Below, one piece after another: positions 726 to 64,000 of a DNA stretch of 64,000 bases. Within the stretch, counting starts at the first letter, position 1. Each line of letters begins with the position of its first letter. Origin of the DNA: Octopus vulgaris (Eukaryota); assembly GCA_951406725.2 (NCBI GenBank), contig OX597817.1, forward strand, positions 124,124,001 to 124,188,000, read 5' to 3'. The translations under genes were made by a program, and so were the position numbers. The notes beneath the pieces are model-generated. The model ran no database searches, had not been told where the DNA came from, and was given only the letters and a program-made list of their open reading frames with translations.

Positions 726-756
726 ATATACATATATATATATATATACATACAAT

Positions 757-993
757 AACGTAAGGTGTACTAGCCATCTGAATGTGGCTAGCCACTGGGG
801 GTGGGGGTGTTACTGATGCTTTTAGCCCCAGGTGATCAACATCACCAGATGGACTTTAGACACTATCTCAGTGCCCTTGTGTTATTTGCAAAGGGAGGTC
901 ATCCTCCTCGAAAACCTAAGTACTACATACGGACTATAGTTTCAAGGTAATTGCCTCTCGTCAACGCATGGTAAGCACCGGTCTTCGATGAAG
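757..993 (-). repeat. Partial hammerhead-repeat (retrozyme-like) monomer downstream of Tx1 copy 1
   Basis: Matches the 355-bp unit at 6518-6872. It begins on the minus strand with the target duplication at 976-993. Confidence 0.9.
926..970 (-). ncRNA. Type I hammerhead ribozyme motif (copy A)
   Basis: Minus strand reads CAUGCG-UUGACGA-GAGG caauua CCUU-GAA-AC uaua GU-C^-CGUAUG: stem I, core with C3U, stem II, GAAA, palindromic stem III, GUC cleavage triplet. Confidence 0.8.
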
Positions 994-1354
994 TTTTCTT
1001 TATTATGATCAATAGATCTAACATAGAATGGATACATTACAGGACAAAACAATTACAAAAATGCTATGCGAGTTCGAATGAAATTTTAAAAATTACAAAA
1101 TTAAAATTTTATGTCACTTGAACGAAAACTTGGCTTACTTTGCCTTGAAACGAAACCTTGGCTTACTTTTGCCTTTATCACGAGAACTTTTAGTGCGTAT
1201 GTTTTCTTTTCATTTCTTTTTTTTTATTATTAATTCTTTATTTTAAACAGTTATGTACAGTGAAAGGTAATGGGAGGTACCAGTTTCAATTTTGAACCCG
1301 GCAGCCTATAAATCCCAGCAGCTGATTTTTCTTTTCCTCGATGATTAAGCTGGG

Positions 1355-4300
1355 TTACTTCTCACCCACCTTTCTCATCACATCCTTCCAACGTTCCATA
1401 TACTCTTTCTGTGGCAGGCTCCTCTTCTCCAACCCCATCTTGCTCTTCAGATGATATCCGAAGTATTTTAACAAACCGGGGCCAGAGATAAAGGACCCTT
1501 TCACCAGACCTTCCACTCTAGTTCTCCATACACACTCTTTCAATACTGCCACCGTACAGTAAAAACAAGCCTTACCTTCCTTTGAGAGTCCAGTTGGCGG
1601 TATCATCTTAATCATAGATCCAGCCGACAGCTGTACTCGTCCCAGATGCGACAACACGTGTTCCACGTAACTTATCAAGCCTGACAGCTCCCGACATTGT
1701 ACAAAAGCGTGTTGAACGGTTTCATCGTCCAACCCACATCTTGGACACGTCGGTGGCACTGACATTCCGTGCCTGGATAACTTCTCGCGAACAGGTAATG
1801 CATTCCTATAGCACTGCCAGGTCAGGGATTTTTGGTAATTATCCAAATACCCCGGCCTGAAAGTCTTCTTAAACAGGTTGGAGAGTTGATCCTCATCGAA
1901 CCCCAGAGCCCTTCCTAGGACGTCGTCATTTTTCCTCCTACCAGCCCTTTATAGAACACCGAGGTGGTATTCCCGCTGCCGGCCTTACCCATCTTGTGGA
2001 TCAGCCAGAGTGCCTGTCGGCACTCCTTCTGCCATGAAGTCAGTTTACGTCCTTTAATGAGACCGGGTGTAAATCCCTCCATAGAGGCCGGTCGCGGGAA
2101 GAATTCCTCTGCCAGCGAACTCCACACCTTATCATCCTCCAGGTAACACCAGAGGTGTCTCAGCCTCAACGCATGCTTGCGCATCATTAGCCAAGGCATC
2201 CCCAGTCCACCCTTTAGCGGTTCCTGGCAACACACGGAGCGTCTCACAAGTGGCTTTCCTCCTTTCCACAAAAAGCGGAAAAGAAGTCGTTCCAACTTGT
2301 TTAACCACGAATCGGGGCAAGGCACGACGGTCAGGCGGTAGGTGACGACAGAGGCTATAAACATCTGTGCCACCTCCGCCCTCCCTTTCAAGGAAAGATG
2401 CCTTCCGGACCACTTCCGTACTATGGCATCCACCTTGCTCGTTACCTCGCTCCAATTCTTCTCCGTCTGGGAGTCTGGACCAAACCAGACTCCGAGCAAT
2501 TTAACAGGACCATCCGTCCAGTGTCCAACAACACTGGACGGTATCTGCTTGTTCCTCCAGGTGCCGAGGCGCAAACCGATGGACTTGTCCCTGTTAACTT
2601 TTGCCCCTGCCACCGCTTCGTATCTATGGAGAGCACCTACTACCCGAGGTAGCTGTGTTCCGTTGGACACGATGAGGGTGACGTCATCCGCATAGGCAGA
2701 AACAGACTTACCGCATCCGATTTCATTAGGGTTGCCTCCCAACTTCTCCAGCTTCCGCAGCAATGGCTCAAGAGCCAAAACATACAGGAGCGGGGACAAG
2801 GGGCACCCTTGACGAACTGAACGCTTGATCGAAAACGGCTCCGTTAGGTAACCGTTTATCTGGACTGTGGACTTGATGCCGCTGTACATAGCTGAGATCC
2901 ACCCGCAGAAGCCAGGGCCCAGCCCAGCCGCTTCGAGAACCGCCGCCAAGTACCGATGGTCCACCCTATCAAACGCTTTACTTTGGTCTAAATGGACCAA
3001 TGCCCCTCCTTTGCCGTCTAATTTCCCGACCCTATCTATAGTGTAGCGGAGAAGGTGAAGATTATCCTGGATCGACCTGCCTGGGATTGCACATGTCTGT
3101 GCCTTCCCGACAAGTTTCTTCACGACAGCCGTCAACCTTTTTGCTAACACCTTGGCCAAAATCTTAAACTCTACATTAAGTAGAGTTATGGGCCTGTAAT
3201 TACTAATACTGTCCCCCTTGCTCCGGGTCTTTCTGGACCAGCGTCACAACTCCCCGACTCACAGAGCTGGGAATCCTCCCATTCTGTTGCCAGTTTGCAT
3301 AGACGCTTGCCAGTATGTCCCCGAACAAGTCCGGCATACAACAATAAAATTCATAGGGTAGACCATCCAATCCCGGTGACTTTTCCCCGGCGCACTCGGC
3401 CATAACCCCTCTTACCTCTGCGGGAGAGATCGATCCTTCACAGCACTCCGCCTCACCTGCCGAGAGCCGAGGCCCACCAGCTAGGAAGTCCTTTAAGGTC
3501 TCCCCACGCTCGAGCGGGCTACCGCCCCCAAACAGCCGTGCGAAATGCTGGTGAAGGACCTTCTGCATCTCCTCCTGTCCATAGATCTTGCGGTCCTGCT
3601 CGTCAGTTAAGGACATAATACAGGACTTTTTGCCCTTCTGACTCTCCTCACGACGGGCCCATCCGGCAACGTTAATACCTTCTCGTTTTCCTGCACGTAA
3701 CTTTAGCTCTGACTCTACACCCCTCGTGCTTGGCGTTGAGGTGACGGTACAATACCGCTCTCGCTGCCAACACTCCGGATGCACAGCCAGATTCCATAGC
3801 CTCGTCTAAGTTCTTAACTAATTCGCCCTCTATTCTAGTCCTATCTAAACTTAGCTGCTTGCTAAATCTAATGGACTCCAAACGGATGGCTCTTTTGAGG
3901 GCGTGCCACCATCTATTATTAATGATGGTGCCACATAATGCCCTCTGTACTAATTCCTTAATCCGGGTACGGAAAGCTTCACAGGTCAAAATAGACTTGT
4001 TCATCTTCCAGTACCCGGGACCTTGTCTATGGCATTTATCTACATGTACCTCACACGTTACAAGTTTGTGATCCGTGTAAGGCACAACAGAGAATTGTGG
4101 ACAGCTAACACTATTCCTATCTCGTTCCTTAACAAATACTCTATCTATGTACGATCTGAGTGAGCCGTCGTTATTACTCCACGTCCACTGTGGAACGTTC
4201 GGCTCATCCAGTCGAAAACGGTCTACTAGATTAAAGCTCGCTAGTAGAGCCTTGAGGCCAGGATTCCCCTTCCTATCGCTCGAGCCTACACCATCCACCC

Positions 4301-4737
4301 GCGCATCGAGAATGGTGTTGAAATCCCCTACCAAGACTACCGTTTTGGACGTCACTAGAAAGTGCTCCAGTTCCCGATAAAAACCGGTCTGCCCACGTCC
4401 GTTAGGAGCGTAGACAGCCACCAACCTGAAGGACTGCTTACTCACGTGCGTCACATCTAGGACAACCAGCCTACCTTCTGGGTCCAAAAAGACAGTACTT
4501 ACCTGTAAGTCCAAGTTCTTCCCTGAAAAGAACTGCCACGCCTGCACCTCCCCCTCGGCTAGGAGAAATAAATTTCTCGTAACCATTGAGAAGTGGTGAG
4601 AACGCTTGCGGTCCCTTCATCTTGGACTCGGTAACAATAGCTACTTCGATTCTATGTGAAATGAGGTCGTCACGAAAACAAGCCTGTTTCCATTTCGATC
4701 CCATTCCACGCACATTTATACAACCTAACTTAATCAT
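1355..4737 (-). CDS. Tx1 ORF2p (APE endonuclease, reverse transcriptase, C-terminal CCHC), split by about four single-base indels
   Basis: ORF pieces 4471-4737, 3672-4586, 3203-3784, 1915-3159 and 1355-1846. Motifs INVRG, GDFN, YIDRVF, TDH, LDQSKAFDRV, RQGCPLSP, YADD, CPRC..ETVQHAFVQC. Confidence 0.9.
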
Positions 4738-4759
4738 CGAGAAAAAGAAAATTATTTAC

Positions 4760-6265
4760 TCACGGTTGCGAGAGGGAGCCTGACAGATTCTTTCTGCCTG
4801 TCTCCCCCCCACTCGCCGTTGCTGCTGGGTGTTTCACCGGCGTTGCCACCGGGCTCTGGGTTGGTGTGGCTGCCGGGCTAACGGGTAATTTCCCAGTTGT
4901 CACCTCCTGGGTGACATCCTTAATGAAGCCGGCTTTTACGTGGCTTTGTAAGGTTTTGTCTTTCCATCCTTCTTCGCCGACCCTTCCATATCGCCACTCC
5001 GCTTCCTTCTCGGTCGCTTTGTAGCACCTGATCAGCGTACTTGCTTTCACCCATGTTTCTACTCTCACGTTCTTTGTGGTGTATGCAATAATTTTTTCGT
5101 TGGGTTTAAACCCTTTTACAGTTGGGGGGTGGGGTTTGTTAAAGTGCTGGCCTATAAGTGTAGTACCGCCGGGGTGGGATTGGAGAATATTTTTAATTTG
5201 TTCGTCTGCGTTGTTTTTTTTTTTTGATACGGGTGGGGAGTCAGGGGTGATGGATTTTTCCTTTTGTTGGACACGTTCGTAAATTCCATGTCTTCTTGTT
5301 TATTTGTTTTTGTTGCATTATTTTCCTCATCCTTTCCTTTCTCATTTTGCATTTCGTTCTTGTCTTCCTCCTTTTTGGAGTTCGACCTGTTTATTTTTTC
5401 CTCCTTGTTTTCGCCAGCCGTTACTTTTTTCTCCACTTTGCTGCTTTCTGCGTTCTTCACAGCGTTTTGTGGGGGGGCGTTGCCCGCATTATTTTTTTTT
5501 GTGCAAACAGAGCGAACGTGGCCCTTTTGCCCGCACTTAAAACATCTGGGCCTGCGTCCTTCCACCGAAACTCGTATGGAGTGCCCCTCCCCCACGAAGA
5601 CTCTGTCTGGTAGGCTTTCCAACGTCGCATTTTCCGCCTGGATTATCATCTCCAGCTGCTGGCCTCTCCAGTGTTTTGCAATTTTTCTCTTCATACTTAA
5701 AATTGTCAATTTTGATTCAACATCAAAAATGACCGCTGTTGCCGCCCACATCACGTCGTAGCCCGTTGGTATATCTTCTAGGGTCACTTTTGCGGTTCTG
5801 CATCCTAAATATAAGGGTAGCAGTATTATACTCTCGTTTTTCAACGTTTGTGTCGAAATTTGCCTTGCTACTTCCGCCGTTTCAAAATGCGCCTCCACTG
5901 TAGCGCTTCTTGCACCTCGGTTGACATGACTAACTTTACTCCATATTGGAGCCATACACTTTTCGACCATTTCGTTTTTCACGTCGGTCATTCGTTTTTC
6001 CTTGATATTGTACACCCTGTAGGTGACCATTTTTTCCTTTATTGCTTGTATAGTTTCGGGGGCGGTACCAATCGTGTTTCTTCACCACTTTTTTGCACCA
6101 GCGATCTAAACTTGAATAATCTTTCCATTGATACCTCCATTTCTTCGACTTCGCCACCTACGGCGTCTGAAAAACTGGGTTTTGTCTGTGTTTCCTTTTG
6201 TTTAACAGTTGTTATACTTTCTCCCATCTCGGGAAAGTCTTTTTTGAACTTAAGTCTAATTCCAT
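4760..6265 (-). CDS. Tx1 ORF1p (gag-like, zinc knuckle), frameshifted
   Basis: ORF pieces 6039-6227, 5152-6030 and 4760-5068. CFKCGQKGHVRSVC (CX2CX4HX4C) is followed by a K/E/N-rich low-complexity region. Confidence 0.82.
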
Positions 6266-6517
6266 ATTAGACAACACAAACTTGTCACAAATGACAAGAG
6301 AATTTTTTTTTTCCAAAAATAACCTATACAGGTTAAGAGTTCACACAAAACAGCACACAGAAATTTTCTACCCCGAAGGGCGAAAATTACTGGGTCAAAA
6401 ACAGTTCAACAATGATATTACTTGTAACACGACAGAGTAGACAAACGGAAACGAACTCACACAACGATTTGCAGCAACAGAAAAATATTGGTATACACCG
6501 AGGAAAAATTCAAAAAA

Positions 6518-6944
6518 CACCGGTCTTCGATGAAGGAGTCCCCTTGCAAATAATATATAACGTTTTTCACAGCAACCACTGTCACTGATTTAGAAAAACT
6601 GTCTGAAAGCAATAATAAATCTCTGAACGAGATATAAACAGTAACCGCTCGACAACGTAAGGTGTACTAGCCATCTGAATGTGGCTAGCCACTGGGGGTG
6701 GGGTGTTACTGATGCTTTTAGCCCCAGGCGATCAACGTCACCAGATGGACTTTAGACACTATCTCAGTGCTCTTGTGTTATTTGCAAAGGGAGGTCATCC
6801 TCCCTCGAAGACCTAAGTACTACATACGGACTATAGTTTCAAGGTAATTGCCTCTCATTAACGCATGGTAAGCACCGGTCTTCGATGAAGGAGTCCCCTT
6901 GCAAATAATATATAACGTTTTTCACAGCAACCACTGTCACTGAT
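6518..6944 (-). repeat. Hammerhead-repeat array upstream of copy 1 (one 355-bp unit plus a partial unit)
   Basis: CACCGGTCTTCGATGAAG recurs at 6518 and 6873 (period 355). The site at 6873-6890 is an empty target. Confidence 0.9.
6823..6867 (-). ncRNA. Hammerhead motif copy B, core mutated (UUAAUGA)
   Basis: Same stems as the other copies, but G5 is replaced by A, so probably inactive. Confidence 0.65.
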
Positions 6945-7484
6945 AGCATCAGTAACACCCCACCCCAGCGGCTAGCCACATTCAGATGGCTAGTACACCT
7001 TACGTTGTCGAGCGGTTACTGTTTATATCTCATTCAGAGATTTATTATTGCTTTCAGACAGTTTTTCTAAATCAGTGACAGTGGTTGCTGTGAAAAACGT
7101 TATATATTATTTGCAAGGGGACTCCTTCATCGAAGACCGGTGCTTACCATGCGTTGACGAGAGGCAATTACCTTGAAACTATAGTCCGTATATAGTACTT
7201 AGGTCTTCGAGGGAAGATGGCAAATAACACTGAGCACTGAGATGTGTCTAAAGTCCATCTGGTGACGTTGATCGCCTGGGGCTAAAAGCATCAGTAACAC
7301 CCCACCCCCAGTGGCCCACATTCAGATGGCTAGTATACCTTACGTTGTTGAGCGGTTACTGTTTATATCTCGTTCAGAGATTTATTATTGCTTTCAGACA
7401 GTTTTTCTAAATCAGTGACAGTGGTTGCTGTGAAAAACGTTAAATATATTATTTGCAAGGGGACTCCTTCATCGAAGACCGGTG
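6945..7484 (+). repeat. Hammerhead-repeat array upstream of copy 2 (partial unit plus one ~342-bp unit with small deletions)
   Basis: CTTCATCGAAGACCGGTG occurs at 7125-7142 (empty site) and 7467-7484 (5' target duplication). Confidence 0.9.
7148..7192 (+). ncRNA. Type I hammerhead ribozyme motif (copy C)
   Basis: CATGCG 7148-53, TTGACGA 7154-60, GAGG-caatta-CCTT 7161-74, GAAAC-tata-GTC 7175-86, CGTATA 7187-92. Predicted cut after 7186. Confidence 0.78.
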
Positions 7485-7735
7485 TTTTTTGAATTTTCCT
7501 CGGTGTATACCAATATTTTTCTGTTGCTGCAAATCGTTGTGTGAGTTCGTTTCCGTTTGTCTACTCTGTCGTGTTACAAGTAATATCATTGTTGAACTGT
7601 TTTTGACCCAGTAATTTTCGCCCTTCGGGGTAGAAAATTTCTGTGTGCTGTTTTGTGTGAACTCTTAACCTGTATAGGTTATTTTTGGAAAAAAAAAATT
7701 CTCTTGTCATTTGTGACAAGTTTGTGTTGTCTAAT

Positions 7736-9248
7736 ATGGAATTAGACTTAAGTTCAAAAAAAGACTTTCCCGAGATGGGAGAAAGTATAACAACTGTTAA
7801 ACAAAAGGAAACACAGACAAAACCCAGTTTTTCAGACGCCGTAGGTGGCGAAGTCGAAGAAATGGAGGTATCAATGGAAAGATTATTCAAGTTTAGATCG
7901 CTGGTGCAAAAAAGTGGTGAAGAAACACGATTGGTACCGCCCCCGAAACTATACAAGCAATAAAGGAAAAAATGGTCACCTACAGGGTGTACAATATCAA
8001 GGAAAAACGAATGACCGACGTGAAAAACGAAATGGTCGAAAAGTGTATGGCTCCAATATGGAGTAAAGTTAGTCATGTCAACCGAGGTGCAAGAAGCGCT
8101 ACAGTGGAGGCGCATTTTGAAACGGCGGAAGTAGCAAGGCAAATTTCGACACAAACGTTGAAAAACGAGAGTATAATACTGCTACCCTTATATTTAGGAT
8201 GCAGAACCGCAAAAGTGACCCTAGAAGATATACCAACGGGCTACGACGTGATGTGGGCGGCAACAGCGGTCATTTTTGATGTTGAATCAAAATTGACAAT
8301 TTTAAGTATGAAGAGAAAATTGCAAAACACTGGAGAGGCCAGCAGCTGGAGATGATAATCCAGGCGGAAAATGCGACGTTGGAAAGCCTACCAGACAGAG
8401 TCTTCGTGGGGGAGGGGCACTCCATACGAGTTTCGGTGGAAGGACGCAGGCCCAGATGTTTTAAGTGCGGGCAAAAGGGCCACGTTCGCTCTGTTTGCAC
8501 AAAAAAAAATAATGCGGGCAACGCCCCCCCACAAAACGCTGTGAAGAACGCAGAAGCAGCAAAGTGGAGAAAAAAGTAACGGCTGGCGAAAACAAGGAGG
8601 AAAAAATAAACAGGTCGAACTCCAAAAAGGAGGAAGACAAGAACGAAATGCAAAATGAGAAAGGAAAGGATGAGGAAAATAATGCAACAAAAACAAATAA
8701 ACAAGAAGACATGGAATTTACGAACGTGTCCAACAAAAGGAAAATATCCATCACCCCTGACTCCCCACCCGTATCAAAAAAAAAACAACGCAGACGAACA
8801 AATTAAAAATATTCTCCAATCCCACCCCGGCGGTACTACACTTATAGGCCAGCACTTTAACAAACCCCACCCCCCAACTGTAAAAGGGTTTAAACCCAAC
8901 GAAAAAATTATTGCATACACCACAAAGAACGTGAGAGTAGAAACATGGGTGAAAGCAAGTACGCTGATCAGGTGCTACAAAGCGACCGAGAAGGAAGCGG
9001 AGTGGCGATATGGAAGGGTCGGCGAAGAAGGATGGAAAGACAAAACCTTACAAAGCCACGTAAAAGCCGGCTTCATTAAGGATGTCACCCAGGAGGTGAC
9101 AACTGGGAAATTACCCGTTAGCCCGGCAGCCACACCAACCCAGAGCCCGGTGGCAACGCCGGTGAAACACCCAGCAGCAACGGCGAGTGGGGGGGGGGGG
9201 AGACAGGCAGAAAGAATCTGTCAGGCTCCCTCTCGCAACCGTGAGTAA
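7736..9248 (+). CDS. Tx1 ORF1p (zinc knuckle), frameshifted
   Basis: ATG at 7736. ORF pieces 7685-7963, 7972-8355, 8352-8579, 8564-8806 and 8655-9248. CX2CX4HX4C knuckle. Confidence 0.82.
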
Positions 9249-9267
9249 ATAATTTTCTTTTTTCTCG

Positions 9268-12200
9268 ATGATTAAGTTAGGTTGTATAAATGTGCGTGGA
9301 ATGGGATCGAAATGGAAACAGGCTTGTTTTCGTGACGACCTCATTTCACATAGAATCGAAGTAGCTATTGTTACCGAGTCCAAGATGAAGGGACCGCAAG
9401 CGTTCTCACCACTTCTCAATGGTTACGAGAAATTTATTTCTCCTAGCCGAGGGGGAGGTGCAGGCGTGGCAGTTCTTTTCAGGAAGAACTTGGACTTACA
9501 GGTAAGTACTGTCTTTTTGGACCCAGAAGGTAGGCTGGTTGTCCTAGATGTGACGCACGTGAGTAAGCAGTCCTTCAGGTTGGTGGCTGTCTACGCTCCT
9601 AACGGACGTGGGCAGACCGGTTTTTATCGGGAACTGGAGCACTTTCTAGTGACGTCCAAAACGGTAGTCTTGGTAGGGGATTTCAACACCATTCTCGATG
9701 CGCGGGTGGATGGTGTAGGCTCGAGCGATAGGAAGGGGAATCCTGGCCTCAAGGCTCTACTAGCGAGCTTTAATCTAGTAGACCGTTTTCGACTGGATGA
9801 GCCGAACGTTCCACAGTGGACGTGGAGTAATAACGACGGCTCACTCAGATCGTACATAGATAGAGTATTTGTTAAGGAACGAGATAGGAATAGTGTTAGC
9901 TGTCCACAATTCTCTGTTGTGCCTTACACGGATCACAAACTTGTAACGTGTGAGGTACATGTAGATAAATGCCATAGACAAGGTCCCGGGTACTGGAAGA
10001 TGAACAAGTCTATTTTGACCTGTGAAGCTTTCCGTACCCGGATTAAGGAATTAGTACAGAGGGCATTATGTGGCACCATCATTAATAATAGATGGTGGCA
10101 CGCCCTCAAAAGAGCCATCCGTTTGGAGTCCATTAGATTTAGCAAGCAGCTAAGTTTAGATAGGACTAGAATAGAGGGCGAATTAGTTAAGAACTTAGAC
10201 GAGGCTATGGAATCTGGCTGTGCATCCGGAGTGTTGGCAGCGAGAGCGGTATTGTACCGTCACCTCAACGCCAAGCACGAGGGGTGTAGAGTCAGAGCTA
10301 AGTTACGTGCAGGAAAACGAGAAGGTATTAACGTTGCCGGATGGGCCCGTCGTGAGGAGAGTCAGAAGGGCAAAAAGTCCTGTATTATGTCCTTAACTGA
10401 CGAGCAGGACCGCAAGATCTATGGACAGGAGGAGATGCAGAAGGTCCTTCACCAGCATTTCGCACGGCTGTTTGGGGGCGGTGCCCGCTCGAGCGTGGGG
10501 AGACCTTAAAGGACTTCCTAGCTGGTGGGCCTCGGCTCTCGGCAGGTGTGGCGGAGTGCTGTGAAGGATCGATCTCTCCCGCAGAGGTAAGAGGGGTTAT
10601 GGCCGAGTGCGCCGGGGAAAAGTCACCGGGATTGGATGGTCTACCCTATGAATTTTATTGTTGTATGCCGGACTTGTTCGGGGACATACTGGCAAGCGTC
10701 TATGCAAACTGGCAACAGAATGGGAGGATTCCCAGCTCTGTGAGTCGGGGAGTTGTGACGCTGGTCCAGAAAGACCCGAGCAAGGGGGACAGTATTAGTA
10801 ATTACAGGCCCATAACTCTACTTAATGTAGAGTTTAAGATTTTGGCCAAGGTGTTAGCAAAAAGGTTGACGGCTGTCGTGAAGAAACTTGTCGGGAAGGC
10901 ACAGACATGTGCAATCCCAGGCAGGTCGATCCAGGATAATCTTCACCTTCTCCGCTACACTATAGATAGGGTCGGGAAATTAGACGGCAAAGGAGGGGCA
11001 TTGGTCCATTTAGACCAAAGTAAAGCGTTTGATAGGGTGGACCATCGGTACTTGGCGGCGGTTCTCGAAGCGGCTGGGCTGGGCCCTGGCTTCTGCGGGT
11101 GGATCTCAGCTATGTACAGCGGCATCAAGTCCACAGTCCAGATAAACGGTTACCTAACGGAGCCGTTTTCGATCAAGCGTTCAGTTCGTCAAGGGTGCCC
11201 CTTGTCCCCGCTCCTGTATGTTTTGGCTCTTGAGCCATTGCTGCGGAAGCTGGAGAAGTTGGGAGGCAACCCTAATGAAATCGGATGCGGTAAGTCTGTT
11301 TCTGCCTATGCGGATGACGTCACCCTCATCGTGTCCAACGGAACACAGCTACCTCGGGTAGTAGGTGCTCTCCATAGATACGAAGCGGTGGCAGGGGCAA
11401 AAGTTAACAGGGACAAGTCCATCGGTTTGCGCCTCGGCACCTGGAGGAACAAGCAGATACCGTCCAGTGTTGTTGGACACTGGACGGATGGTCCTGTTAA
11501 ATTGCTCGGAGTCTGGTTTGGTCCAGACTCCCAGACGGAGAAGAATTGGAGCGAGGTAACGAGCAAGGTGGATGCCATAGTACGGAAGTGGTCCGGAAGG
11601 CATCTTTCCTTGAAAGGGAGGGCGGAGGTGGCACAGATGTTTATAGCCTCTGTCGTCACCTACCGCCTGACCGTCGTGCCTTGCCCCGATTCGTGGTTAA
11701 ACAAGTTGGAACGACTTCTTTTCCGCTTTTTGTGGAAAGGAGGAAAGCCACTTGTGAGACGCTCCGTGTGTTGCCAGGAACCGCTAAAGGGTGGACTGGG
11801 GATGCCTTGGCTAATGATGCGCAAGCATGCGTTGAGGCTGAGACACCTCTGGTGTTACCTGGAGGATGATAAGGTGTGGAGTTCGCTGGCAGAGGAATTC
11901 TTCCCGCGACCGGCCTCTATGGAGGGATTTACACCCGGTCTCATTAAAGGACGTAAACTGACTTCATGGCAGAAGGAGTGCCGACAGGCACTCTGGCTGA
12001 TCCACAAGATGGGTAAGGCCGGCAGCGGGAATACCACCTCGGTGTTCTATAAAGGGCTGGTAGGAGGAAAAAATGACGACGTCCTAGGAAGGGCTCTGGG
12101 GTTCGATGAGGATCAACTCTCCAACCTGTTTAAGAAGACTTTCAGGCCGGGGTATTTGGATAATTACCAAAAATCCCTGACCTGGCAGTGCTATAGGAAT

Positions 12201-12656
12201 GCATTACCTGTTCGCGAGAAGTTATCCAGGCACGGAATGTCAGTGCCACCGACGTGTCCAAGATGTGGGTTGGACGATGAAACCGTTCAACACGCTTTTG
12301 TACAATGTCGGGAGCTGTCAGGCTTGATAAGTTACGTGGAACACGTGTTGTCGCATCTGGGACGAGTACAGCTGTCGGCTGGATCTATGATTAAGATGAT
12401 ACCGCCAACTGGACTCTCAAAGGAAGGTAAGGCTTGTTTTTACTGTACGGTGGCAGTATTGAAAGAGTGTGTATGGAGAACTAGAGTGGAAGGTCTGGTG
12501 AAAGGGTCCTTTATCTCTGGCCCCGGTTTGTTAAAATACTTCGGATATCATCTGAAGAGCAAGATGGGGTTGGAGAAGAGGAGCCTGCCACAGAAAGAGT
12601 ATATGGAACGTTGGAAGGATGTGATGAGAAAGGTGGGTGAGAGTAACCCAGCTTAA
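9268..12656 (+). CDS. Tx1 ORF2p (APE + RT + CCHC), one single-base frameshift near 10492
   Basis: ORFs 9268-10509 and 10548-12656. Copy 1 has an extra A (GGTAGCCCG) that would join them into about 1129 aa. Confidence 0.92.
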
Positions 12657-13007
12657 TCATCGAGGAAAAGAAAAATCAGCTGCTGGGATTTATAGGCTGC
12701 CGGGTTCAAAATTGAAACTGGTACCTCCCATTACCTTTCACTGTACATAACTGTTTAAAATAAAGAATAATAATAAAAAAAAAAGAAATGAAAAGAAAAC
12801 ATACGCACTAAAAGTTCTCGTGATAAAGGCAAAAGTAAGCCAAGGTTTCGTTTCAAGGCAAAGTAAGCCAAGTTTTCGTTCAAGTGACATAAAATTTTAA
12901 TTTTGTAATTTTTAAAATTTCATTCGAACTCGCATAGCATTTTTGTAATTGTTTTGTCCTGTAATGTATCCATTCTATGTTAGATCTATTGATCATAATA
13001 AAGAAAA

Positions 13008-13244
13008 TTTCATCGAAGACCGGTGTTTACCATACGTTGACGAGAGGCAATTACCTTGAAACTATAGTCCGTATGTAGTACTTAGGTTTTCGAGGGAGGA
13101 TGACCTCCCTTTACAAATAACACAAGGGCACTGAGATAGTGTCTAAAGTCCATCTGGTGACGTTGATCGCCTGGGGCTAAAAGCATCAGTAACACCCCAC
13201 CCCCAGTGGCTAGCAACATTCAGATGGCTAGTACACCTTACATT
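13008..13244 (+). repeat. Partial hammerhead-repeat monomer downstream of Tx1 copy 2
   Basis: Starts with the target duplication and ends at ...GTACACCTTACATT, the same point in the monomer as the opposite arm. Confidence 0.9.
13031..13075 (+). ncRNA. Type I hammerhead ribozyme motif (copy D)
   Basis: CATACG/CGTATG perfect stem I, TTGACGA core, GAGG-caatta-CCTT, GAAAC-tata-GTC. Predicted cut after 13069. Confidence 0.8.
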
Positions 13245-13929
13245 ATATTTACATTGTTTTTTACATAAAACCAACATAAATATTACTGTTGTAAAACAAA
13301 CTCTAAAATGATATAGTATATTTGTCTCTGTCATTGTTTCCTTTTAGCTAATTTTTCTCTGAAATTCCTGATTAAGAAGCATTTAGCTTTATTGTTTTTA
13401 TTTATTTTTATGTTAGTGTTGCTATTTAACTGTGGATCAACCTTGATTGTGCTGGTCATTAATCCAACGATTTCCAACTATGGGTAACATATCCTTCCTG
13501 TGCATTTCTTACCTAGAAGCATCTTATCCAGTATGTTACAGCCTCCTTTGTAAGACACCAAGATTTAATATAAAAGAGGTTTGACTGCTATTTTTAGCAT
13601 GTCAGAGAAAGATGTAGAACAGTTACGAGCATCCTATTGCCCACAAACCACATACAGCCTGCATAACTTTCTGTATGGCATGTCTCATGAAAGACTACCC
13701 TGAATTATTTTAATAGTGCAGCTCACCTGGTGTTGAGCCAAGCCTTATGCGATCAACTTCTTGATTACCCTCATTTTTAAGTCTTCCCTAACTACTAGTA
13801 AGCTGTCTGACTGGACTGATGCACATTGTCTGTCACTGGTGTTATACTACATCTATGGCTAAATCAGGGTCATCTATCTTAACTATATGAGTACACTGGG
13901 TTTAGGGTAAAAAGATAAAGTTACGTTCT

Positions 13930-52251: not shown

Positions 52252-52323
52252 TTTCCACACCAGGAATTGAGCCAGGGCCACCTAGGTGAAAGCCAGGAAT
52301 CCTAACCTCTAAACCACATGGGA
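52252..52323 (-). pseudogene. tRNA-Glu (TTC) pseudogene
   Basis: Minus strand TCCCATGTGGTTTAGAGGTTAGGATTCCTGGCTTTCACCTAGGTGGCCCTGGCTCAATTCCTGGTGTGGAAA resembles metazoan tRNA-Glu but has a broken B-box/T-loop and stem mismatches. Confidence 0.8.
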
Positions 52324-59494: not shown

Positions 59495-62300
59495 CATCAT
59501 TATCATGTAACGTCCGTTTTCCAAACTGATCTGGGTTGGACGGCTTGACAGGGGCTGGCAAGCCAGGAGGCTGCACCAGGCTCCAATCTTATCTGGCAAG
59601 GTTTCTACAGCTGGATGGCCTTCCTAATGCCAACCACTCCAAGAGTGTAGTGGGTGCTTTTCACATGCCATTGGCATGGGAGCCAGCTAAGCTGCACTGG
59701 CATTGGCCACATTCAGGTGGTGCTATTTAGGTATCACCATCACAGGAGCCAGTTGGCATGGGGTGGCTGACATCGACCACTTTCAGATGGTGATTTTCAT
59801 GTGCCACCAGCATGGGGAGCCTGTCAGGAGGCACTGGCTTTGACCCACACATGAATGGTGCTTAGTGCATCAGCTAACTACAATATCCATTTTGAGTTCG
59901 ATTTGACTGAGATTCTGTTTGGGATTTTGATTTTACTTGACTCAATAGGTCTTCTCAAGCAAGGTGTGTCCCCTGACAAGTCAAAGGTATTTTTTAAATG
60001 AGCTGGTTATGCGACACTGGTATAGGCTATGTCTGTGATCTCACTTTACTTGCCGAGTCTTCTCAATTACTGCATATCTCCAAAGGTCTTGGTCTCTTGT
60101 CATTGCCACTGTGAGGCCCAACGTTTGAATGTCATGCTTCACCACCTCATCCCATGTCTTCCTGGGTCTCCCTCTTTCACAGGTTCCTTCCAATGTTAGG
60201 GAGAGACACTTCTTCACACAGCTGTCCTCATCCGTACACAGGACATGCCCATATCAGTGGAGTTGTCTTTCTTGTATACCACATCCGATGCTTCTTATGG
60301 CCAACATTTCTCCCAGGGCGCTTCCACTCTGTTGTGTATGCACAATGACATTGCACATACAGTGGATCATACTAGCTTCATTTCTTTCACACCTACATAA
60401 ATCCACAACAGTTATGGCCCATATTTCACTACTGTGTAGAATGGCCGTTCGCACACATGAATCATTCAATCTACCTTTCACTCTGAATGAGAGGCCCTTT
60501 GTCACCAGCAGAGGTAGGAGCTTTCTGAACTTTGCCCAGGCTATTCTTATTCTAGTTCTGGTAGTGATTCAGCTATGAGAGAAAGGTCATCAGCATAGAG
60601 GAGCTCCAAGAAGCAACCTGTCTTGAATATTCATTCCCACTACAGACTTGGTCACCTAGGTAGCAGAAGTTATCAACTACTTCTAGTTTCTCCCCCTGGT
60701 ATGTGATGGAATCTGTTTTTTGAACATCTTTGGTGTTTATTGCCCCCTGTACATTTGCCGTACACAAAAACTATTTTCCCAGTTAACCTTCCTTTGATGT
60801 TGCTGAACCTCTTATGTATCCATAGCTTACACTGAGTACATCTTATTGAGTTTCTACCTTCACCTTTTCTACAGATTGAGCAGGGCCTTTTCCCTGAAGG
60901 GGTTTGTGATTTGTTTGCCTTCCTACTTACTAGGACTTCGGTTTTTGCTACATTGACTCTAAGGCCCTTCGATTCTAGACTGTGCTTCCACACATGAAAT
61001 TTCATCTCTAGTTCTGGTAGTGATTCAGCTATGAGAGCAAGGTCATCAGCATAGAGGAGCTCCCAGAGGCAACCTGTCTTGAATTCCTCTGTTATTGCCT
61101 GTAGGACTATGATGAATAAGAGTAGACTGAGGACCCCTACTTCTACCCGAAACTCTTCACTGAACTATTTGCTGACCCTTACTTTACTGACAGCATCCCT
61201 GTACATGGGTTGTACAACTCTTACTAACCTCTTGTCTATCCCTAGTTTCCGCATCACCCACCAGATAAGAGATTGAGGGACCCTCTCAAAGGCTTTCTCC
61301 AAGTCAACAAAAGCCAAGTATAAGGGTTTATCTTTGGCTAGGTATTTTTCCTGCAGTTGCTGTACCAGAAATATAGCATCAGTAGTGCTTCTACCTGGCA
61401 CAAAACCGAACTGCATCTCATCTATGTTGATTCTCTCCCTAATTAGTTAGGCTATGACCCTCTCTGTGAACTTCATCACCTGCTCCAGCAATTTGGTACC
61501 CCTGTAATTATTTCTATCTAAAACATCACCTTTGCCTTTGTAGCAGTTGACTATGGTGCTGCTTCACCAGTCATTGGGTATCACTTCTTAATGAACTACC
61601 TGATTTACAATACGAGTGACTAGAACATAACCCATACTACCAAATATTTTAAGCATCTCAGCAGTGATTCCTGATGGGCTAGGGGCTTTTCCTGAGTTCC
61701 TATCCTTAATTGCTTTATCTACCAGGGTGCTATTCATTTGAGTAGTTGGTCTATCAACTGGGTTAATATTTGGCAGGCTCTCCTCCTCCCATTCATTTTC
61801 CACATTCAGCAGCCTTTCATAATAGTATCTCCAAGCCTCTTTCTTTGCAAAATCATTAAAAGTAAGTGCACCATCATCCATGCAGACACATTTCTCTCCT
61901 GTAACATCACAATTTTCTCTCTCACACTGTCTTGCAATTCGAAATACTTCAGTTCTTTGGTCGTCACGTCACTGAATATTGGCAAACTTCTTTTCTGCTT
62001 CTTCCTTGGCTATATATACCTGTCTTCCAGCCTCCCTTCTGGCTATCTGGTAAAGTTCCCTGCTACCCTAACTCTTCCAGGTTTTACAAGCGTGTTTCTT
62101 TGCTCTGATGGCCTTGTCTACAGTATTATTCCACCACCACTTTACCCTAGGTCTGGAAGGGACTTTGCACCAGTCACAGATTTGGTCTGTGGTGCTTAGT
62201 AAGCTGTTACGTAGGAATTTCCAGTTACCCTCTATGGAGCATACACTAGAAAGGAAAGTGTTGTTGAAGAGGTCACAGATGTGTGACAAAAGATTTCTGG
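59495..62300 (-). mobile_element. 5'-truncated decayed RTE-clade LINE with 3' UTR and tail
   Basis: WWWN, GKAPSPSGI, MQFGFVPGRSTTDAIF, AFVDLEKAF, LLYADD, KGLRVNVAKT, and the PCSICRK..SIRCTQCKLWIHK zinc-finger insert. Confidence 0.9.
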
Positions 62301-62544: not shown

Positions 62545-64000
62545 CTAGCAGAGCCACCTGGCGTTGCCCAAGAATGAAATTTTTCCTTACATATTAGAAG
62601 AAAAGAGGAAAATATGTTGTAGAGAAATTTGTTATTCTAAATTCAATTTATTCTTCAATTGGGATACTATTTATTCTTTAAATTGGGAAATCAATTCTGA
62701 ATTTATAATACAAATTATTATATACGAAAATACAAAATTTACCACTTTTATAAAAGGAGATAAATTCTACCACATATGTTGAAGGAAATTATGTGAGAGT
62801 TTCTGGGTAAACAACATTCCTTGTTTTCTGGTTTGGAGCATAGACAAAGTTGACCATGAGAAAAGCAAGCCAGTAGATTTCAAAGACTAACCTTGCGCTT
62901 TATTAATAGACATTGCAAAGCAAAGTCACATTGGGAATTGTGTTCATTTGAATTCAAAGTGCATGTCTGTTGGTTTTATTGGAATTCTTGGAACGAAAAC
63001 CTTTTCCCCAGACACATCCAGAGATGATGGTAGTTCTTATCACATTAAGTGATAATGTCTTCACAATCAAACTTATCCCATTGCATAATTTAGGAGGATC
63101 TAAATTTGTTAGAAGCATTATTGGAACTTCTGCCTTCAGAAAAATTTTATGTGGAGGAATTCCAGGTGGCTCAAGAGAATTAAGGAACTCTGTTGGGTAA
63201 TGGACAGCTTGATTTTCATCAAGGACTGAATCAACTGATTTGTACTTCTTAATGACTATTGGAATTTTATGCATTAATTCATGAAGAATTTTTGCTACTG
63301 TTTCATTTTTTGGAGTAAGAATTACTCTTTCACACAACCATGTTTGTGGATCATAATTACTACCTAAGTCTGGCAATATCCTGTTCTTCAGTTCAGCTGA
63401 AGAATTCACCATGATAGCAATATGAGCCAAATTGACATCACCATTCCCATCAAATGGTACTTTCCCATTCCCTAATTGGCGGAGCCAGGTTGAAAACCGT
63501 TTTGCACATTGGTTCCCATGTAATGAAGCTCACACGCTAGTATTGAAAGAGGATTTCAATACTTTATTCCATAGGTGTGAAGACTTAATGCATGCTTTTA
63601 TTTCATCAGATCTTGTTCATCTCAGAATGAGTGGTAATGTCTGTCTCAAGTCTCCTGATAAAAGTGATGTAACTCCTCCCATAGATTTATTGTTGCCTCT
63701 GATGTCCTGTAAGGTCTTACTAAGATATGGTGCATTCATCCCAAATGATAGGTGGCATTGGCACAACACTTCTGCTGAAGCTAAACCTTTGCTAATGTTA
63801 CAAATTAGATTACCTTGTGACCATGTTTAGTGGTAATTTAAAAGCAGAATGAGCTGTTCGTCCTCCTGGGAGAATGCTGACAACAAAGCCAGACAATGGT
63901 ACAGCAACTGCAATTTCTCTTTTGTTGTCTTACATTGGAGAGAAGCAACGTTACAAATGTTTTACCTGTGTCACCAGGAATATCAAGAAACATCTGCTTT
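62545..64000 (-). mobile_element. Helitron 3' portion (Pif1 helicase pseudogene), continues past the window
   Basis: ORF 62954-63430 has VILTPKNE, YPTEFLNSLEPPGIPPH, PIMLLTNLDPPKLCNG. 3' end GGGCAACGCCAGG..CTAG|T. Confidence 0.9.

Follow-up and report, generated by a model that had tools for sequence, protein, structure and literature searches.

Two LINE copies in an inverted repeat

The window, by which we mean the whole 64,000-nucleotide stretch of Octopus vulgaris DNA that was analysed, contains a single inverted repeat with arms at 755-6944 and 7071-13246 that share 99.1% identity. Each arm carries a LINE of L1/Tx1 type. The right copy (7485-13008, plus strand) is 5.5 kb long and lacks poly(A), and the left copy (994-6517, minus strand) differs from it by four substitutions. 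Both ORFs are frameshifted in the right copy, and the left copy is frameshifted as well. On the plus strand of the right copy, an ORF1 region with a zinc knuckle covers 7736-8660, with approximate limits taken from a near-identical copy (L135, C24:20.246-20.252 Mb), and ORF2, with an AP-like endonuclease, a reverse transcriptase, and a zf-RVT domain, covers 9253-12656. The 5' UTR of the LINE is about 250 nt long. At the other end, an AATAAA on the plus strand (12997-13002), a candidate 3'-processing signal, lies 6 nt ahead of the element end, which reads AATAAAGAAAAT without an A-tract and includes the T at 13008.

Unlike the window copies, L135 has open reading frames, of 332 and 1134 residues. 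Its predicted domains (a zinc knuckle just below the cut-off, an AP-like endonuclease, a reverse transcriptase, and a C-terminal zf-RVT) are those of an L1-group LINE, and human L1 ORF2p is the best solved relative (E 7e-63). We tentatively place the element in the Tx1 clade from its structure and target specificity, the 39 homologues compared being without a named Tx1 reference. The family has a low copy number, with an exact 3'-end pattern matching 25 places. Both window copies and L135 grouped with four copies resident in U2 genes (support 100/98) in an element tree whose 26 rows are the 30 long copies less L153, L155, L163, and L167.

The LINE copies are flanked by units of a repeat with a period of about 355 bp, which we call the retrozyme. 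Around the right copy, on the plus strand, a unit of subfamily 'a' with small deletions lies upstream (7126-7467) and a truncated unit lies downstream (13009-13244). Around the left copy, on the minus strand, the upstream unit (6518-6889) has a damaged hammerhead core (UUAAUGA, 6861-6855), and the downstream unit (757-993) has a hammerhead with a predicted cut after 932. The left copy is bounded by an 18-bp duplication on the minus strand (6518-6535 and 976-993). Between the arms lies the centre of a retrozyme palindrome (6870-7145, with no strand assigned and the inversion point at 6944/6945), which matches a LINE-free locus on contig C2 with 97.4% identity over 973 bases, inversion point included.

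When the arms were compared, 12 of 504 flank sites differed, versus 4 of 5513 body sites, and the 3' junctions of the two LINE copies were one base apart. We considered a single snap-back copy of a LINE-containing RNA as the source of the inversion and rejected it as the simplest reading, because flank and body divergence are unequal, the 3' junctions differ, and a LINE-free palindrome exists. The simplest reading of these sequences would be an older retrozyme palindrome that received two recent insertions, and it is possible that one LINE was copied into the other arm. The palindrome with the same inversion point and no LINE occurs at C2:152.135 and 152.388 Mb (L171, L172), and its inversion unites two ATCAGT copies of the retrozyme unit. 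Elsewhere in the window are two tRNA-like Rfam matches (31418-31491, plus strand; 52252-52323, minus strand, the latter weak), other mobile-element ORF fragments recognized by eye (reverse transcriptase-like at 237-576 and 60673-61164, helicase-like at 62954-63529), and a gap of 100 N bases near 577-676.

A hammerhead retrozyme as host repeat

Both units around the right copy contain a predicted type I hammerhead on the plus strand with the core UUGACGA, upstream at 7129-7210 with a predicted cut after 7186 and downstream at 13012-13093 with the core at 13037-13043 and a predicted cut after 13069. In the DNA, the downstream motif consists of the core TTGACGA, a 4-bp stem II (GAGG/CCTT), GAAA, a proximal stem I (13031-13036 with 13070-13075), and a stem III of 2-3 bp within the palindrome ACTATAGT, with the predicted cut following GTC. 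The earlier note on this DNA had described the LINE as free of poly(A) and co-oriented with the hammerhead strand, which was borne out, as were its two predicted cuts, one 298 nt before the element start at 7485 and the other 61-62 nt past the element end, since 13008 belongs to the element. It had also spoken of an array; hammerhead repeat units do flank the element, but the run is short, with the downstream unit stopping at 13244 and no further hammerhead found after it.

The stems are well supported by comparison. Across 19 hand-picked related units of several subfamilies, which speak for structure and not for activity, 93.4% of 528 stem cells pair, while structures slid out of register pair in only 19-43%. 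Changes on both sides of a pair occur in 33 cells versus 12.1 in shuffles (0/500) and are seen in both stem I and stem II. Compensatory change thus appears to have kept the three stems that surround the core, as expected for type I hammerheads. Rfam gave no hammerhead in the window at its gathering score, and free-energy folding of 13005-13100 did not yield the catalytic fold. The window cores (U3UGACGA) have U and not C at position 3, and the canonical CUGAUGA is found in subfamily 'c'. UUGACGA is cited in PMC7151607 as a natural, slower variant. Both local hammerheads at L135 have the core UUGACAA, whose U3-A8 pairing is a naturally occurring covariation according to PMC4209133.

The host repeat is dispersed in short tandem runs with inverted partial pieces (138 matches at 40 scored candidates out of 2501). 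It has the short tandem units of 150-450 bp, with one type I hammerhead each and no protein-coding gene, that are expected of a non-LTR retrozyme, and its layout fits that described for such repeats (PMC7229834). An origin from Penelope elements has been proposed for retrozymes (bioRxiv 10.64898/2026.07.22.740005; PMC4209133). We looked for an autonomous Penelope with this repeat as its terminal repeat and rejected the idea, as neither unit matched in 15 Penelope loci, leaving aside one chimera. In that chimera (L163/L175/L177, G000:C10:101.157-101.162 Mb), (TA)n is followed by a 'b' retrozyme piece in inverted orientation, a short inversion, 3.3 kb of LINE 3' sequence, nine target-like bases foreign to Penelope, and the 3' portion of an ORF of Penelope type that has a GIY-YIG domain. 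It may reflect a template switch from Penelope RNA to read-through LINE RNA, or a later insertion at the DNA level.

Of 25 full-length copies, 3 have an intact-looking upstream hammerhead and 3 have a damaged one, and none was found at the other 19. Two of the three intact cases are duplicates that share a deletion, and one of the 19 was examined over 112 nt only. The downstream motif was present at 16 of the 25, with the canonical core in two of these 16 and U3 combined with G8 in eight. Some assembled contigs, whose status as RNA is a guess, also match this region. One continues from the element across its 3' junction into a tandem flank, and of 20 loose ends the 17 shown all lack poly(A). 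As contigs cannot reveal starts, ends, or strand, they were counted neither for nor against any reading. Some contigs begin at 13065-13066, where the variable stem III loop lies, and these starts were not taken as cleavage.

One insertion register in two target classes

Junctions in the DNA place insertions of this LINE family almost always at one register in two kinds of target, the hammerhead repeats and the first bases of U2 genes. The right copy is bounded by a 17-bp target-site duplication, TTCATCGAAGACCGGTG, at 7468-7484 (5' copy) and 13009-13025 (3' copy) on the plus strand. Counted from the A of a shared ATCG as +1, this covers -3 to +14, and duplications in retrozymes and in U2 genes alike have about this extent. 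Among 30 element 3' ends, which are the best 30 of 40 scored and were chosen by similarity, 19 adjoin retrozymes of several subfamilies, 5 adjoin a U2 start, 4 adjoin the target site followed by another LINE, and 2 lie elsewhere. The ends are fixed, none of the 30 has an A-tract, and none of the 30 insertions has the 62-nt 3' flank copied ahead of the duplication.

U2 and retrozyme starts have TT(C/T)ATCG in common, which could be a nuclease motif. Copies with the same type of target cluster on the element tree (9 changes versus 15.3 when shuffled, 0/200 shuffles). This fits targeting guided by RNA flanks and also the ages of the retrozyme subfamilies; the clustering is confounded by age and near-copies. 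An off-target insertion, L165, is 300 bp long with a 15-16-bp duplication, and begins precisely at the element end without target homology or poly(A).

U2 clusters that carry the LINE lie at C3:20.78-20.84 Mb (L140-L142, L162) and C23:43.31 Mb (L146). In such a cluster the rebuilt U2 sequence sits 5.5 kb from its own promoter, and a U2 copy separated in this way would likely be silenced. Related LINE families are found in tandem at the same target site (L073, L077, L080, L084-L087, and L090; L052, L054, L059, and L060), all ending in AATAAAGA plus a few bases. Subfamily 'd' of the retrozyme (L173, L174, L088, L089) is divergent, with the core CCGAUGA and a longer stem III, and is the target of an older branch of the LINE family.

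Sequences at the 5' junction

Near-identical copies allowed us to separate travelling from local sequence at the 5' end. Between the right copy and L135, 2 of 5515 sites differ in the body, 18 of 265 upstream, and 7 of 62 downstream; between the left copy and L135, 3 sites differ in the body and 16 of 281 upstream. Upstream flanks are thus about 6% apart around elements with only two or three changes in 5.5 kb, and the unit upstream of L135 has local variants in common with its own downstream unit. Because flanks diverge while bodies match, the 284 nt between the upstream cut and the duplication are local and not derived from the donor.

A short donor piece does travel. In all four full-length U2-resident copies, the U2 duplication is followed by ATCGCTACGTGGTG and then by the body. 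But for one change, this leader is identical to 14 nt of retrozyme subfamily 'b' counted from its ATCG, and it starts exactly at the retrozyme ATCG, on the base that corresponds to U2 +1 (7471 in the window). The four copies lie on two contigs, behind two U2 promoter types, and are 17-42 substitutions apart; two of them retain frames of 1069 and 1089 residues, and no hammerhead is present there. Their leaders have one variant base in common and may go back to a single founding event, with 1 nt of microhomology, that was followed by spread from U2 to U2. At L135 and L148, the 5' and 3' duplication copies differ at two positions within +1 to +14, as expected for a donor-derived leader. In R2, tandem additions at 5' junctions are described as marking the 5' end of the RNA (PMC3774820). 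Judged from the junctions, either each U2 leader would record an RNA begun at +1, or the copies would have spread from U2 to U2 without a hammerhead.

A probably borrowed snRNA-type promoter

The retrozyme units contain a candidate promoter at the place where the leader would require one. An ATCAGT hexamer on the plus strand at 7411-7416, a predicted snRNA-type proximal sequence element, lies at -60 from ATCG, with a predicted transcription start at 7471 and a predicted RNA leader covering 7471-7484 on the same strand. In this organism's U1 and U2 genes, ATYAGT occurs at -57 to -61 in 30 of 30 scored genes (32 were fetched and two with a LINE upstream were dropped; the 30 represent four promoter types only). 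Retrozyme units have ATCAG at -56 to -61, and the hexamer is found at the expected distance in 19 of 25 full-length LINE copies. This spacing matches an snRNA-type promoter, as far as sequence can predict one.

A matrix built from the U1 and U2 genes was applied to 11 retrozyme units, where the top site fell at -58 to -60 in eight and the second-ranked site did so in one. In the two divergent 'd' units the top site was at -64/-65, with the choice of +1 uncertain there, and one 'c' unit scored best on the other strand. The background was 25 of 14,256 positions. Scores of the retrozymes (6-15 bits) are below those of the U1 and U2 genes on which the matrix was trained (17-24). In 12 U6 matches, viewed by eye and many of them pseudogene-like, the hexamer was not seen at that place, so U6 does not serve as the promoter model. 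For newt satellite 2, another hammerhead repeat, an snRNA-type Pol II promoter is cited in PMC2220036. The earlier note mentions neither this promoter type nor the U2 targets.

Taken together, the shared register in both targets, the hexamer, the 14-nt leader, and the local flanks suggest that the LINE's RNA is likely started by a host snRNA-type promoter and not released by the upstream ribozyme. Pol II would start at the A of ATCG and give an RNA whose 5' end holds 14 nt of target. The end of the cDNA could then anneal to the top-strand overhang, giving a seamless full-length insertion, and each new copy would again stand behind a promoter. Several points count against promoter borrowing. 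The match rests mostly on one hexamer, which lies in a hairpin stem of the folded unit, and RNA structure may help to conserve it. Five full-length copies stand behind another LINE without an adjacent promoter. In addition, vertebrate snRNA-type promoters are coupled to 3'-box processing, and a translated, polyadenylated 5.5-kb RNA from such a promoter is a prediction for this animal.

The 3' end of the RNA

The AATAAA is found 6 nt before the end in 30 of 30 element ends and also in the sister-family ends seen in tandem. Cleavage for polyadenylation falls 10-30 nt downstream of AATAAA, so it would take place inside the duplicated target, a site that would serve U2, tandem, and retrozyme hosts alike. 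Judging by the junctions, the nick would leave a primer strand whose end is the complement of UUCAUCG; a read-through RNA would be able to pair with this primer, unlike poly(A). The RNA may thus pass the element end and be cleaved and polyadenylated inside the duplicated target, with a few target-matching bases pairing with the primer and the poly(A) never being copied. We hold this view tentatively, at a little under even confidence and less firmly than the promoter at the 5' end. The target-homologous read-through that the earlier note proposed is plausible and has indirect support from the fixed ends without A-tracts and from this primer end; since L165 starts at the element end with no homology to its target, pairing is not obligatory.

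Alternative sources of the RNA ends

The earlier note had proposed that read-through of the array is cut at 7186 and 13069, and that the released RNA of element plus one repeat unit, possibly circular, is the template. Both hammerheads are indeed present and co-oriented at the right copy, their stems covary, and retrozyme monomers of other animals are described as being released and circularized in this way (PMC7229834). The upstream ribozyme nevertheless does not appear to set the 5' end, given the local origin of the 284 nt, the absence of an upstream hammerhead in most full-length copies, and the damage to that of the left window copy. At the U2 junctions 14 and not 298 donor bases are found, beginning at ATCG, and either origin of the U2 leaders would contradict such a template; nor was the 62-nt flank ever copied. 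The circle of element plus one unit is left without support by the same junctions and local flanks. Transcription from the start of the upstream unit itself, at 7129, could yield such an RNA as a side product. The model is largely refuted for the general template, and we consider it highly improbable. The parallel that had been drawn to the ribozyme release of R2 does not hold either, as no ribozyme cleavage at or near the 5' junction is indicated.

A hammerhead role at the 3' end has more in its favour. In retrozyme-resident copies, the 5' end could come from the promoter and the 3' end, at +58, from the borrowed hammerhead. The RNA would then retain 61 nt that match the target and finish in a cyclic phosphate, and this end would guide priming. 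The downstream motif at most full-length copies, the fixed ends without A-tracts, the record of UUGACGA as a natural variant, and the clustering of targets on the tree agree with this, and a longer target-matching read-through is reported to improve insertion by R2Ol (PMC6795142). The duplication was said to regenerate the 5' arm of stem I; it restores the 5' strand of distal stem I, but proximal stem I comes from ordinary flank. Against a hammerhead end stand the rarity of canonical cores and the frequency of U3 with G8, the AATAAA kept upstream of the cut in all 30 ends and in the tandem sister families, and the confounding of the tree by age and near-copies. With its stem III of 2-3 bp, the hammerhead may also depend on pairing up as a dimer (PMC4209133), and a transcript that starts at 7471 would have no such partner. 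Downstream cleavage is thus possible in retrozyme-resident copies but not required, as sisters with long ORFs sit in U2 without any hammerhead. We regard this combination of ends as unlikely, consider the downstream hammerhead a doubtful, optional second terminator confined to retrozyme-resident copies, and find AATAAA-directed processing the likelier of the two. In a wider version, the host unit would supply both ends of the LINE's RNA: the promoter would give a 5' end that is capped and carries 14 target bases, and the hammerhead a 3' end that is free of poly(A) and carries 61. Together they would help to steer a near-unchanged protein between retrozyme subfamilies and U2. This is speculative and rather improbable; if true, the target of a LINE could be reprogrammed through its RNA flanks alone.

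It is also conceivable that an internal promoter fires slightly upstream, in the flank, as that of human L1 can, and that the endonuclease alone picks the target, with the hexamer being incidental. The 5' UTR offers room for such a promoter, the copies behind other LINEs are full-length, TT(C/T)ATCG could be what the nuclease recognizes, and L165 would be an off-target use. A leader that begins on the equivalent of U2 +1, at the hexamer spacing of U1 and U2 genes and in subfamilies only about 70-80% alike, argues against it, as does entry into both target classes at the same register, and we judge it improbable. Host snRNA-type initiation is our preferred reading of the 5' end.

Meaning and comparison with known systems

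LINEs with a specific target are already known, with rDNA, U2, tRNA genes, and other transposons as their sites. The present family points to another rule, which is to land just behind an snRNA-type start, be it that of U2 or of a parasitic ribozyme repeat. Its near-identical elements in different targets form a natural series in which to study how targets are switched and what RNA flanks contribute to target-primed reverse transcription, and their junctions offer DNA-level evidence for the start of retrozyme transcription in a mollusc-like genome. The involvement of ribozymes at both ends was the more surprising claim, and it fails at the 5' end. Our literature search, whose scope did not extend to Repbase and the supplements of PMC4494074, found no report of a LINE targeting retrozymes or snRNA start sites; a tree in PMC4494074 labels some Tx1 targets 'Sat', which may bear on novelty.

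The element resembles Tx1L in Tx1D and Tx1-Mar in Mariner-N4, as described in PMC4494074, in being an AP-endonuclease LINE with an L1-like ORF2 that enters one site in another repeat. It differs from them in its targets, a hammerhead retrozyme and the U2 start, and in its constant register to a predicted snRNA-type start. Insertion into U2 snRNA genes, sometimes in tandem, is shared with Keno (Tx1 clade) and Utopia (PMC4640811). For these, the downstream U2 sequence is given as beginning at nucleotide 39, whereas the flank here starts at -3, which sets the element apart from Keno. Unlike in Keno and Utopia as described there, the duplication rebuilds the whole U2 downstream, and most copies lie in retrozymes.

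Compared with non-LTR retrozymes and newt satellite 2 (PMC7229834; bioRxiv 10.64898/2026.07.22.740005; PMC2220036), the host units are alike in their dispersed tandem organization at about 355 bp, type I hammerhead, and palindromic short stem III, as well as in having inverted 5' pieces in the manner of Penelope and, ahead of the cut, a predicted snRNA-type promoter. Unlike the repeats described in those sources, these units are a LINE landing site, their commonest core is UUGACGA, and their cleavage and circles are predictions. With R2, as described in PMC3774820, the LINE shares transcription borrowed from the target unit (predicted here), target bases at the RNA 5' end, uniform junctions, and occasional tandem additions. 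The 5' end of R2 RNA is cut by its own HDV-like ribozyme, 0-36 nt upstream (PMC3774820). Here, by contrast, the junctions record a 5' end that coincides with a predicted promoter start; the closest ribozyme cut upstream is 298 nt off and often absent.
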